From: a phage
Sequence record: PZ019086.1
Length of the DNA: 64,000 nt
Direction: 5' to 3' (one strand)
In this document: positions 40,077 to 50,820 of the stretch, piece by piece
Position numbering within the stretch: position 1 is the first letter of the stretch
How the letters are laid out: each line of letters begins with the position of its first letter
Notes under the pieces: model-generated
Databases searched by the model: none
What the model saw: only the letters and a program-made list of their open reading frames with translations
Told to the model about the DNA's origin: nothing
Translations under genes and position numbers: made by a program

Positions 40077-40290
40077 ATTTGACTTCCTCGCCAGTACCCA
40101 AATCATATTCAACTAAACGAATAGGTTCATGAATGCCATATCCCTGAACAGAAATTTCTGTCGTAGGATAAATTCCATCAATATCACCCATATTCCAGGC
40201 TTCATTAAATTGCTGTTCGCCTGAATTACTAAACCACTCGGCGAAAGCATTTAGCACATCTTCAGAACCTTCAATAATTATCTTTGCCAT
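40069..40290 (-). CDS. Hypothetical small acidic protein (vs.5)
   Basis: 73 aa; TAATG coupling. Confidence 0.5.
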   Translation of the reverse strand: MAKIIIEGSEDVLNAFAEWFSNSGEQQFNEAWNMGDIDGIYPTTEISVQGYGIHEPIRLVEYDLGTGEEVKYD

Positions 40291-40652
40291 TACAAACTTT
40301 CAGTAAAGGTACGAGCGATAACGTCGCGCTGCTGTTCCGGAGTCAGAGAGTTAAAGCGAACTGCATAACCGGATACACGGATGGTCAGCTGCGGATATTT
40401 TTCCGGATGCTTAACTGCATCTTCCAGAGTTTCACGACGCAGAACGTTAACGTTCAGGTGTTGACCACCTTCAATTTTAACTGTAGGTTGTGTTTCAATT
40501 TCAATTTCGCGGGCATGCAAACCGTAGAAAATTTCCGGGTCTACAAAAGAGTCCTCTTTAAAGGTTTTAGAAACGATAATTCGTGCTTGAATACCATCTT
40601 CAAAATAAATAGTACCTTTATGTGTGCCTTCAAGAATTTGATATGCTTTCAT
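40290..40652 (-). CDS. Glycyl-radical spare-part protein (GrcA/YfiD-like)
   Basis: 120 aa; C-terminal glycine radical signature [11 protein letters not shown]. Confidence 0.7.
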
Positions 40653-40659
40653 ATAAACC

Positions 40660-40989
40660 TCAATTAGAAAATAAATTTATCCAGGATTGTTCTTTAATTA
40701 AAAACGGCTCAGAATCATATGCCATTAAACTTTGGGTAATTAATCCTTTAAAAGGTCCATCAATAAATTCCATGGTAAAATATGGAATTTTATTCATTAG
40801 CCGTGCATTAGGAGCAGTGCACAAAACTCTGCATCCTTTGAATACACCTTTTTGTAATTTGTATTGCTTGGGATAAAATTCGCTTAAAATGTTATTATTT
40901 GCTAAAATTTCAAAATGATTCACCAATTTATTTTTAATAGTTTTTGGCGAAAAATAAAGATATTCGAAAAGCTGAGTGTCTGTCATCAT
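40660..40989 (-). CDS. Hypothetical protein (vs.7 position)
   Basis: Start set to ATG at 40989 ([10 protein letters not shown]...). Confidence 0.5.
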
Positions 40990-41525
40990 TGCATTCCGAT
41001 TACGAAAAACTGTGGACGAGTAATACCACCAATGCAACAGTTAATATTACAGCAGTGGTGTACAGTGTCAATATGGACACTATAAATCTTATCCATATCA
41101 GGAGATTTGACAGGCTCATCAATTATATATAAAATTCGCGAAAGCGATAAACCTCTGAACTTGCTTCCTTTATTACCAATAAAACTGCGCACAGAATCAG
41201 TAAATAAACGAAAACGTATATCATCATTAGAATAACGCGAAAATTCCTTTTTAATGTTATTTGCAGAAATTTTAGCGTAAGCTGAAGTATTAGAAAGAAC
41301 AATAACTGTTCCGCCATCATATAACCAATTAGCAGCAAAGTTAGTCACAGCAATTGATTTACCGGATTGACGTCCACCATCTATACGAAGTGTGCAATAC
41401 TGTTTAAGTAAGTCTTCAAATGGTGGGATATAATCGTTTTTACAAATTTCTTCTACTCTAGCATCAGAATGGTGTGTAAAAGCATTCATCAGGGATAGAT
41501 AAGGACCAGTTAAAAATGTTCTCAT
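40986..41525 (-). CDS. P-loop NTPase-like protein (vs.8 position)
   Basis: Start set to ATG at 41525; Walker A-like RIDGGRQSGKS and hydrophobic strand then DEP. Confidence 0.55.
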   Translation of the reverse strand: MRTFLTGPYLSLMNAFTHHSDARVEEICKNDYIPPFEDLLKQYCTLRIDGGRQSGKSIAVTNFAANWLYDGGTVIVLSNTSAYAKISANNIKKEFSRYSNDDIRFRLFTDSVRSFIGNKGSKFRGLSLSRILYIIDEPVKSPDMDKIYSVHIDTVHHCCNINCCIGGITRPQFFVIGMQ

Positions 41526-41684
41526 TTTGTTCTCTCTAAGTTTGGGCCATTCCGTGGCGCATGAATTGTCCATTTCTGTATTTACCCATTACCGCACTTG
41601 GGCTCGACCTTATTACAGGTTGGCGGGAATCCCTCACAGAATCATGAGGTCCAGCTTGTTCCCATTTTATTTGAATGTAAATAG

Positions 41685-41702
41685 GCCTATACTTAGGCCT
41701 TA
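41685..41702 (-). terminator. Hairpin after ipIII
   Basis: aggcctatacttaggcct; approximate. Confidence 0.4.
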
Positions 41703-42281
41703 TTAATTACCACGGGCCGCATTAGCAACGGCGTAAGCATACTGAACATTAGCGTCTTTAAATGTACCTTTAGAGGTATCTATTTCTGCCTTAAAGCCGC
41801 CTTTAGCCATAACATCGGCGAATTCTTTACGGAAAGCCATTGCATCGAGACCTTTCCATGATGATTTATGCTTGGCAAATTCAAGACCTGCGAAGTTGAC
41901 AGCTTTAGCCAATTTATTATCAATGACCCATTTACCGGCTTTAGGCACAAACTTCGGGCCTTTTTGTTTAGAGAACAGTTTTAAATTCCAGCGACGAAGA
42001 TCACTGTCGGCTTTAACAAAAGCTGCGTCTAAGTTACTAGCAACAACATCTTCAATATGAGCAAATTTAAGTCCGTCAACTTCAATATTTAAATCGGTAC
42101 GCCAGCGAAGTCCTTCCCAAGCGAAAGCTTTAAAATCGGAAGCTTTTGTAGCTAAGTATCGTTCAATAGGGGCTGTTTTAGGGTCAAAGCCGTTTCCACC
42201 ACGATAGTTCCACTCGTCCTTATTAATGCCTTTGGCCTTTACTACAGAAGCTTCAGCAATAAATTCTTGATACGTTTTCAT
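41703..42281 (-). CDS. ipIII: Internal protein III (capsid-targeted)
   Basis: 192 aa; N-terminal capsid targeting sequence MKTYQEFIAEA. Confidence 0.85.
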   Translation of the reverse strand: MKTYQEFIAEASVVKAKGINKDEWNYRGGNGFDPKTAPIERYLATKASDFKAFAWEGLRWRTDLNIEVDGLKFAHIEDVVASNLDAAFVKADSDLRRWNLKLFSKQKGPKFVPKAGKWVIDNKLAKAVNFAGLEFAKHKSSWKGLDAMAFRKEFADVMAKGGFKAEIDTSKGTFKDANVQYAYAVANAARGN

Positions 42282-42307
42282 TTTTGTTCCTATTGTTTTA
42301 ATTCATG

Positions 42308-42622
42308 TTATTCTTTAGGGAAGTTTTTAGAGTATGCGTCATAAAGTTTATTACCAATACGACGGAAGACTCTAGCTGCAAAACGGTTTTCAGGGTTTTT
42401 AATCATGATTTGCATCATGTAAGTTCCTGCATCCGAAAGAGCTTCTTCATAGTACCCATTAATTTCTTTAAGAGTCCTACGTTTACCACCAGGACCATCA
42501 ACAGTAATTTTCCATTTACCTGTAGAAGTGCGGCTCGGTGGCTCAACTTGTTCAATCCAAATATAACCACCTTCAACGCGTTGGTTGGCGGATTCTGCAA
42601 TAAATTCTTTATATGTTTTCAT
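42308..42622 (-). CDS. ipII: Internal protein II-like (capsid-targeted)
   Basis: 104 aa; N-terminal MKTYKEFIAES. Confidence 0.75.
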   Translation of the reverse strand: MKTYKEFIAESANQRVEGGYIWIEQVEPPSRTSTGKWKITVDGPGGKRRTLKEINGYYEEALSDAGTYMMQIMIKNPENRFAARVFRRIGNKLYDAYSKNFPKE

Positions 42623-42649
42623 TTTTGTTTCCTTATTTGTTTTGATAGA

Positions 42650-42684
42650 GTAATTATACCATATTAATACTTAAGCGTAAACTG
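42650..42684 (-). promoter_or_regulatory. T4-type early promoter (extended -10 TGGTATAAT)
   Basis: Plus strand agtaattatacca...cgtaaac; approximate. Confidence 0.55.
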
Positions 42685-42685
42685 T

Positions 42686-42946
42686 TTAAGCTTTACCGCC
42701 AGAAATAATTCCGAAGGTGTTAAAATCATATCCAATATCGTCAACATCTACTTTAGGGCTTGCTACAACGTAAGCAATTTCACTACGTTTTGCATAGGTG
42801 TTTATTTCTCTACCATCGCCGCCTAGGAAAGAATACCCATTACGTTTTAATGAGCCAAAATCTTCGGCATCACCAACGAAAGCTTTAACTTTAAATTTGG
42901 GGCCTTTGACATCTGCTTCAGCGATAAATTCTTGATACATTTTCAT
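42686..42946 (-). CDS. Additional internal-protein-like small protein with capsid targeting sequence
   Basis: Start at in-frame ATG 42946 (MKMYQEFIAEADVKG...) with GGAGGAAAA RBS. Confidence 0.65.
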   Translation of the reverse strand: MKMYQEFIAEADVKGPKFKVKAFVGDAEDFGSLKRNGYSFLGGDGREINTYAKRSEIAYVVASPKVDVDDIGYDFNTFGIISGGKA

Positions 42947-42967
42947 TTTTCCTCCAAGTAGTTGATG

Positions 42968-43004
42968 AATGTATAGTATCAAAGTCCTTGGAGGAAGTAA
43001 ACAC
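42968..43004 (-). promoter_or_regulatory. T4-type early promoter
   Basis: Plus strand tgtatagtatca...agtaaac; approximate. Confidence 0.55.
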
Positions 43005-43285
43005 TATTTTTCTGAAGCGCCTGAAATATATTTTTCAAGACGTTGTTTCATTAGCGAGCCGTTCTTAGCGATTTCTTCCGGTTTATCGCACATACGCAAC
43101 AAGGCTTCAAGCTTAACGATATCGCTGGTACGTTCAAATTTGCGAGTATCTATCTTACTAGCAAGTTCAGAAATACGTGCTAATAGACTTTCAGCTTCAA
43201 CCAAAGCTGCACCTAGCTTAGTTGCAAATGTGTCGGTAGCTTCGTTAAGAATAGATTCCGATAAAAATTCACTATATGTTTTCAT
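43004..43285 (-). CDS. Additional internal-protein-like small protein with capsid targeting sequence
   Basis: 93 aa; N-terminal MKTYSEFLSES. Confidence 0.65.
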   Translation of the reverse strand: MKTYSEFLSESILNEATDTFATKLGAALVEAESLLARISELASKIDTRKFERTSDIVKLEALLRMCDKPEEIAKNGSLMKQRLEKYISGASEK

Positions 43286-43295
43286 ATATACGCTT

Positions 43296-43820
<525 letters not shown>

Positions 43821-50532: not shown

Positions 50533-50820
50533 TTACAAAAGATTTTTAGCAATAATCTTGAGATGTGCCGCAGAAATGTGTTTAGCTTTAAACAACGCAG
50601 TTTCTTCAGCAGGAGAGATAATGATTGTAGCACCATCCTTTTTAGCAGACCACCCATCGCCTAGGTAAACAGTACCTTTGATTTCTTCGCCATCAACCAG
50701 ACTAATCATTGGTTTACCTTCTCGTCCTTTATTTGCTTTAATAACTTCAGAAGTAAGAGTAGCTTCGGTAATGGTAGAAACCGGGGTAGTTGTAGAAGTA
50801 AATTCTTTAAATGTTTTCAT
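50533..50820 (-). CDS. ipI: Internal protein I (capsid-targeted; in T4 an anti-restriction protein)
   Basis: 95 aa; MKTFKEFTSTTTPVSTITE targeting leader; matches T4 IPI closely from memory. Confidence 0.85.
   Translation of the reverse strand: MKTFKEFTSTTTPVSTITEATLTSEVIKANKGREGKPMISLVDGEEIKGTVYLGDGWSAKKDGATIIISPAEETALFKAKHISAAHLKIIAKNLL

Follow-up and report, generated by a model that had tools for sequence, protein, structure and literature searches.

Four consecutive genes downstream of e share a capsid-targeting leader

The window, by which we mean the whole 64-kb stretch of phage DNA analysed here, contains four consecutive minus-strand genes (43285-41703), each of which encodes the T4 capsid-targeting sequence (CTS) at the N-terminus of its product. 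Gene e for endolysin (43296..43784, minus strand; Pfam Phage_lysozyme) is located directly upstream of the array, and the order of transcription on this strand is e, the ORFs of 93 aa, 86 aa, 104 aa and 192 aa, and finally a terminator-like hairpin, AGGCCTAAGTATAGGCCT followed by ATTT (41683..41700, minus strand), which lies just past the ipIII stop codon and closes the array. The other genes and sites given with coordinates below are likewise on the minus strand. The first gene (43004..43285) encodes a protein of 93 aa, called IP93, with the leader MKTYSEFLSE/S (the slash denotes the predicted cleavage site) and a predicted mature form of 83 aa with a pI of ~6.3. It is followed by the gene for the 86-aa protein IP86 (42686..42946; leader MKMYQEFIAE/A; predicted mature form of 76 aa, pI ~6.4), by an Ip10-like gene of 104 aa (42308..42622; MKTYKEFIAE/S; predicted mature form of 94 aa, pI ~9.6) and by the ipIII orthologue of 192 aa (41703..42281; MKTYQEFIAE/A; predicted mature form of 182 aa, pI ~9.7). 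A second internal-protein (IP) locus contains an ipI orthologue of 95 aa (50533..50820), whose N-terminus reads MKTFKEFTS... and whose leader of 19 residues ends in ITE/A.

An ORF listing combined with a six-frame motif scan returned exactly five ORFs starting with MKx[YF]x[ED]F in the 64-kb window, all five on the minus strand and with ATG as start codon; beyond these, the six-frame scan of the window found no further ORF with such an N-terminus. All four array leaders conform to the consensus MK(T/M)YxEF(I/L)xE. The targeting residues Tyr4 and Phe7 are present in 4/4 array proteins (Phe4 and Phe7 in IPI), and the processing motif (L/I)-x-E occupies residues 8-10 with Glu10 in every one of them (IAE/A, IAE/S, IAE/A and LSE/S), the next residue being Ala or Ser throughout; in IPI, the corresponding motif ITE/A is found at residue 19. 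On the DNA level, the 30-nt leader pattern ATGAAAANNTATNNNGAATTTNTNNCNGAA had four matches in the window and none in 100 dinucleotide-preserving shuffles; the leader recurs in the array far above chance. A repeat search further identified a 41-nt direct repeat that spans the ribosome-binding site (RBS) and the leader and is present in four copies at a spacing of 324-341 nt. Its copies are 63-90% identical to the reference copy, and 5' non-coding as well as leader DNA is thus common to the cassettes. Compared pairwise, the five proteins of the window showed no similarity in their mature parts (BLASTP, all E > 0.5).

These residues are well characterized in T4. The first 10 residues of T4 IPIII suffice to package foreign proteins such as GFP (PMC9026906; PMC3012670), and mutagenesis demonstrated that residues 4 and 7 control targeting while residues 8 and 10 control processing (PMC9026906). 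Gp21 cleaves after the Glu of (L/I)-x-E, Asp at position 10 affects processing, and gp21 and gp22 are encoded by core head genes of T4-related phages (PMC9026906).

Both hypervariable IP loci of T-even phages are occupied in the window, namely the same two as in T4 (beside e, and in the interval from 57B to the tRNA region): e and a vs.8-like gene flank the array, and ipI is located downstream of 57B in the order of transcription as in T4. The phage is a T4-like coliphage (Tequatrovirus), and the array occupies the hypervariable IP locus close to e. Based on the T4 gene order, gene 21 (gp21 prohead protease) and gene 22 (gp22 scaffold) are presumably located outside the 64-kb window. T4 has three ORFs of this CTS-led type in the corresponding region, and the window proteins share with T4 IPI, IPII and IPIII the CTS, the (I/L)xE motif of gp21 and the small size. 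The assignment of the array genes as putative capsid-targeted internal proteins is well supported by these sequence features. A first-pass annotation of this DNA had reported the four consecutive CTS-led genes, ipI as the fifth such gene of the window and three such proteins in T4; ORF listing, motif scans and the shuffled controls agree with it on each of these points.

One T4 cargo is retained in the array and another is missing

The 192-aa protein is 96% identical to T4 IPIII over 192 aa and matches PHROG 5341 (E 2e-117), and in public contigs, the product of 192 residues encoded at the same place matches the Pfam family PF26861 (Phage_T4_IpIII). The 95-aa protein is 99% identical to T4 IPI over 95 aa (Pfam PF11634 IPI_T4, E 2e-53). 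The 104-aa protein shares a 90%-identity cluster with "Ip10 [Enterobacteria phage Pol]" (CAA84455), is 71% identical to "Ip10 [Shigella phage SP18]" over 100% of its length and matches PHROG 3966; on this basis it is assigned to the Ip10 family as named in the phage Pol and SP18 records. Some UniRef entries carry the name ipII for this gene, an assignment that we rejected, as T4 IPII aligns at leader residues 1-21 only. The 93-aa and 86-aa proteins, too, lacked any match to T4 IPII beyond residues 1-21, and a tblastn search of the 64-kb window with mature T4 IPII found no IPII cargo.

IP93 matched PHROG 3499 "internal head protein" with E 1e-46, and IP86 matched PHROG 2667 "internal head protein" with E 1e-20 as well as PHROG 35655. 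The IP93 family is very narrow (five clusters with at least 81% identity throughout), and the exact protein was found on 541 contigs. Three extra (L/I)xE sites lie close to its N-terminus, and its mature form is therefore uncertain. Homologues of IP86 fall into 10 clusters, exclusively from T4-like phages, and several of the database entries are fragments. In the window, the IP86 ORF is intact and preceded by a strong GGAGG RBS, and the exact protein occurs in five independent public assemblies. Full length and the C-terminal motif KVDxxD...DF..FG have been kept in homologues with identities as low as 64%. In their mature forms, IP93 and IP86 carry a net charge of 0 and are close to neutral.

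As judged from these alignments, the 192-aa gene is the only one in the array with an orthologue in T4 (IPIII), and three non-T4 cargos (93 aa, 86 aa and Ip10-like), none of which resembles a T4 internal protein past the leader, are found where T4 IPII is missing. Because three cargos are non-T4 and one T4 cargo has gone, the array is best described as the product of cassette replacement and not of simple expansion. The first-pass annotation, which had counted two extra proteins with unrelated mature parts and thereby implied IPII and IPIII among the four, was correct in that the mature parts are unrelated and IPIII is present, whereas its count has to be raised to three and its IPII withdrawn. 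Aligning the proteins with internal proteins of other T-even phages, as it had proposed, supported the orthology of IPI and IPIII and the identity of Ip10, and failed for IPII.

Promoter-like elements and a deletion of denV

Two matches to the T4 late-promoter motif TATAAATA are located ahead of e (43818-43811 and 43805-43798). A motif search found no TATAAATA inside the array, and any late expression of the array would therefore depend on the pair in front of e. Between IP86 and the Ip10-like gene, a promoter scan identified a site resembling sigma-70/T4 early-type promoters (TTTACG-17-TATAAT with TG; 42653..42681; 10/12), and a weaker promoter-like site, GTTTACT-17-TACTAT (43002-42973; 8/12, read by eye), is present upstream of IP86. 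The e/IP93 junction of the window contains a private 14-bp duplication.

The gene denV encodes a pyrimidine-dimer glycosylase. Comparison with IME340 revealed a 57-nt spacer (42947..43003) in place of the 414-nt denV. Among the matches listed, denV lies between IP93 and IP86 in all relatives except Phaginator, and it was not found elsewhere in the 64-kb window. The four array genes are contiguous because denV has been cleanly deleted from the middle of the array. The deletion junction lies within AGGAAA, which is common to the RBSs of denV and IP86, and IP86 therefore now uses the RBS of denV. The same denV-less junction is present in five independent public (Logan) assemblies; since it is identical in all of them, it represents a natural circulating variant, and an artefact of assembly or engineering was ruled out on the same grounds. 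In Phaginator, denV was lost through a different, internal deletion. These sequence comparisons indicate that denV was lost twice independently, once in the lineage of the window and once in Phaginator.

The same genes are present in published relatives

The DNA of the window is ~95-97% identical to IME340, W143, UFV13, SF2-1 and KIT06, and no record identical to it was present in the phage collection searched. In IME340 (NC_054904), all four genes recur in unchanged order with 97% DNA identity, but with denV between IP93 and IP86. W143 (MZ189262) contains these four genes together with IPII, i.e. five in a row at this locus, and has retained denV. UFV13 (NC_031103), which also retains denV, has the four genes, with the 86-aa gene split by a frameshift, and Phaginator (OL615012) has three of the genes. 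In RB69, the IP93 and IP86 cassettes are ~97.6% identical to those of the window and flank denV. Altogether, DNA of the 93-aa and 86-aa genes was present in 241 phage records, RB69 among them. The array is thus already known as a gene set from published genomes and constitutes ordinary cassette polymorphism; the idea of an "expanded" array special to this genome, put forward in the first-pass annotation, has to be abandoned, as the identical set occurs elsewhere and IPII has been replaced.

A single scan of IMG/VR for the leader pattern yielded 85 loci; counted over CTS-led ORFs of at least 50 aa, the leader precedes 49 cargo families that are unrelated to one another. Genome-length T4-like contigs in IMG/VR had at least 2-6 CTS-led genes each.

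Two hypervariable IP loci and >30 IP variants are described for T-even phages, together with promoter-like elements between the IP genes and shuffling via conserved leader and promoter sequences (PMC2839356, citing Repoila 1994 and Comeau 2007 for the loci and variants). The window resembles such polymorphic cassettes in its varying number, order and identity of ORFs and in the conservation of leader and 5' sequence, and differs from them in nothing of kind. Its early-promoter-like elements between cassettes agree with what is attributed to Repoila et al.

Homology, structure prediction and selection of the non-T4 cargos

A Pfam scan of the three orphan cargos (IP93, IP86 and Ip10-like) returned nothing above threshold, and a sequence search against the PDB nothing below E 0.05. 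The match of the Ip10-like protein to the Pfam family CsgH was sub-threshold (E 0.08) and was taken as noise. Outside T4-like phages, no relatives of the three non-T4 cargos were detectable. An exhaustive phmmer search with the Ip10-like protein against 1.84 billion representatives retrieved one true relative (54% identity, 97 aa). Five giant repeat proteins in the same output (RTX, filamin, CBM, Calx-beta and a 4265-aa protein) were rejected as artefacts, because their scores sum many weak repeat matches with pairwise E values of 1e-4 to 1e-6 and are hence additive. By eye, the repeats of the 4265-aa protein look like FG-GAP/VCBS.

AlphaFold2 models, built on shallow alignments, reached a pLDDT of 41 for IP86, which is unusable, and of 58 for the Ip10-like protein, which is poor. 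Foldseek searches with the latter model retrieved only a Cronobacter phage homologue with 38% identity from BFVD and nothing with E below 0.07 from the PDB. As structure prediction failed, the fold provides no mechanistic support.

Codon differences in IP93 were exclusively synonymous (16 synonymous and 0 non-synonymous, summed over four relatives), and those in Ip10 and IPIII were nearly all synonymous in comparison with close relatives. For IP86, the synonymous to non-synonymous ratio was about 1:1 against three relatives (7:6, 11:7 and 8:8), a pattern that would fit relaxed constraint and an arms-race protein alike.

Discussion

The CTS of T4 internal proteins was reportedly defined by Mullaney and Black (Black laboratory). 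Repoila et al. 1994 are said to have described polymorphic IP cassettes, Ip4 to at least Ip10, Comeau et al. 2007 reportedly counted >30 IP variants, and injected GmrSD inhibitors are said to have been reported by Bair and Black 2007 and are also the subject of Silas et al. 2025. The locus described here is a textbook counter-defence hotspot of a phage, in which a fixed delivery tag is combined with interchangeable cargos that arrive together with the DNA. This principle dates back in the literature to 1994, and by 2025 functional work had confirmed it for Ip1-3. No element of a new kind is added to it by the window, whose exact gene set is already in GenBank.

We consider it highly probable that the array consists of a fixed RBS plus CTS module with exchangeable cargo, delivering injected anti-defence proteins. 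Each cassette comprises a conserved module of ~40 nt, with the RBS and the 10-residue CTS, and an unrelated cargo domain. By analogy with T4 IPIII, the leader is expected to bind the gp22 scaffolding core and to carry the protein into the prohead, where the prohead protease gp21 would cleave the (I/L)-x-E motif behind Glu10, setting the cargo free. The trimmed forms of 83, 76, 94 and 182 residues would stay with the DNA in the head and be injected along with it; we found no data in the literature on virion presence or processing of IP93, IP86 or Ip10. In the cytoplasm, a cargo could then inhibit a single host nuclease stoichiometrically and without delay. This was shown for T4 Ip1-3 only, whose target nucleases are GmrSD-type type IV restriction enzymes acting against DNA with glucosyl-hydroxymethylcytosine. 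Recurrent leader and promoter sequences may serve as recombination sites for gain, loss and swap of cargos, a model from the literature that is consistent with the present locus and that would explain why IPII was replaced, why RB69 has near-identical cassettes and why close relatives differ in their sets.

The precedent from T4 is specific. Each of Ip1, Ip2 and Ip3 inhibits a GmrSD type IV restriction enzyme of its own, and they provide no cross-protection (PMC12373910), which agrees with the anti-restriction role that had been ascribed to IPI at the outset. IPIII is required for infection of ECOR17, and IPIII devoid of its CTS still works when provided in trans (PMC9391042). With 99% and 96% identity to their T4 orthologues, IPI and IPIII of the window are expected to act likewise, IPI presumably on a GmrSD of the CT596 type and IPIII on one of the ECOR17 type. 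T4 Ip2 is an inhibitor of the ECOR21 GmrSD/BrxU, and the window is devoid of the Ip2 cargo. The remaining three proteins share the delivery route implied by the leader and may be similar inhibitors of other immediate-early host defences. By analogy, candidate injected inhibitors of host defences is most likely what IP93, IP86 and Ip10 are, as the first-pass annotation had proposed, and this is the accepted working hypothesis.

Alternatively, the non-T4 proteins might serve a mainly structural or physical purpose such as neutralization of DNA charge or assistance in head assembly or ejection, and not inhibit defences. T4 IPIII mutants indeed exhibit slower head assembly, more polyheads and a burst of ~40% of normal (PMC9026906), the packaged DNA contains ~1000 embedded IP molecules, whose lysines touch DNA phosphates (PMC3012670), and the mature Ip10-like and IPIII proteins are basic (pI ~9.6-9.7). 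However, IP93 and IP86 with their net charge of 0 would be poor counter-ions for DNA, each of the three T4 IPs has a defined anti-restriction target, and from a structural role one would not expect unrelated cargos that are freely exchanged and come and go between near-identical phages, which makes this explanation very unlikely. Even less credible, to the point of being nearly dismissed, is a coincidental or merely translational likeness of the leaders (RBS and start context) in ORFs that encode unpackaged cytoplasmic early or late proteins. No specific observation favours such an account, conservation spans 10 codons at the protein level with synonymous variation (ATT/ATC, GCT/GCA), exactly the targeting and cleavage residues are kept, and the first 10 residues of IPIII are sufficient for the packaging of GFP.

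A different concern is that one or more of the genes, IP86 above all, are decaying remnants which hitchhike between selected genes. The near 1:1 ratio of IP86 next to almost purely synonymous neighbours, its frameshift in UFV13, the fragmentary database entries and the repeated loss of the neighbouring denV point in this direction. Against it stand the intact ORF with its strong RBS, the recurrence of the exact protein in five public assemblies and the homologues that preserve full length and the C-terminal motif despite identities as low as 64%; moreover, raised amino-acid substitution would also be expected of an arms-race protein. We therefore regard decay as unlikely and retain the reading of the array as exchangeable, injected anti-defence cargos behind a common leader.

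Genes called ip4-10, which may not correspond to the sequences of the window, caused no reproducible inhibition of 15 synthesised GmrSD groups (PMC12373910), and the sequences of IP93, IP86 and Ip10 were not found in the supplements of Silas et al. 2025. We put forward, with clear reserve, that one or more of the three non-T4 cargos (IP93, IP86 and Ip10-like), once injected, block an immediate-early host defence that does not belong to the GmrSD-type type IV restriction enzymes. This proposal fits because ip4-10 were negative on the 15 GmrSD groups and because IP93 is under strong purifying selection and very widespread. If true, the IP arsenal of T-even phages would extend beyond anti-restriction. 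What the many orphan cargos target is a question for the whole field and not specific to this window; IP93, which is present on hundreds of contigs and invariant in amino-acid sequence among the close relatives compared, is a good candidate to test. Conceivable non-GmrSD candidates are another enzyme attacking modified DNA, e.g. an hmC glycosylase, or a DNA-sensing abortive-infection system.

Loss of denV between two internal protein genes

Among the published relatives listed, nearly all carry denV, which encodes endonuclease V, a UV repair enzyme, between the gene for the 93-aa internal protein (IP93, 43285..43004, minus strand) and that for the 86-aa internal protein (IP86, 42686-42946, minus strand). 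Comparison of the window with these genomes identified a denV-less spacer at 42947-43003, with the junction at about 42949-42954, where denV was lost cleanly at a 6-nt microhomology (AGGAAA) between the two ribosome-binding sites. No copy of denV was found anywhere else within the 64-kb window. An identical denV-less junction was present in five public Logan assemblies, and in the phage Phaginator denV is hit by a different, internal deletion.

RB69 is reportedly incapable of recombining with T4 or the other RB phages (PMC6024577). The RB69 segment spanning IP93, denV and IP86 (NC_004928 64397-64978) was about 97.6% identical to 42900-43060 of the window. If RB69 is indeed non-recombining and belongs to a different genus (Mosigvirus), this degree of identity would indicate that the cassette block was recently exchanged by horizontal transfer.

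Divergence at the gene e junction and in IP86

A 14-bp tandem duplication (two copies of AAAGCGTATATATG) was located at 43283-43310, where gene e meets IP93. In the relatives the stop codon of e and the start codon of the internal protein gene overlap (ATGA), whereas in the window 10 nt separate them. None of the relatives or public contigs compared showed this duplication.

Synonymous and non-synonymous codon differences in IP86 occurred at a ratio of about 1:1, as compared with about 10:1 or better in its neighbours, i.e. the protein-level evolution of IP86 is much faster than that of the neighbouring genes. In UFV13 the gene carries a frameshift. Either decay or diversifying selection could underlie this pattern.

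Leader-headed proteins in metagenomic contigs and genes downstream of ipIII

A scan of IMG/VR with the N-terminal capsid-targeting leader (MKTYxEF(I/L)xE; loci L005-L089) returned 49 unrelated ORF families headed by it. Some of these ORFs reside on metagenomic contigs of 5-60 kb, far below the roughly 170 kb of the T4-like genome contigs that the scan also returned; they include a very basic pair of 364 aa and 151 aa, encoded on several such contigs, and a Gly/Pro-rich protein of 278-290 aa.

Downstream of ipIII, a 195-aa ORF (40986-41573, minus strand) occupies the position of T4 vs.8 and belongs to PHROG 1488, a family of unknown function. It is annotated with 167-196 aa across relatives and showed weak matches to a P-loop/AAA domain (Pfam AAA_14, E 0.016) and to terminase large subunit-like proteins (PHROG 2, E 8e-6). 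The gene at 40290-40652 (minus strand), encoding a stand-alone glycyl-radical domain protein of 120 aa, is an already known gene corresponding to T4 vs.6. In T4 and its relatives, vs.6 is annotated as 'autonomous glycyl radical cofactor GrcA'.
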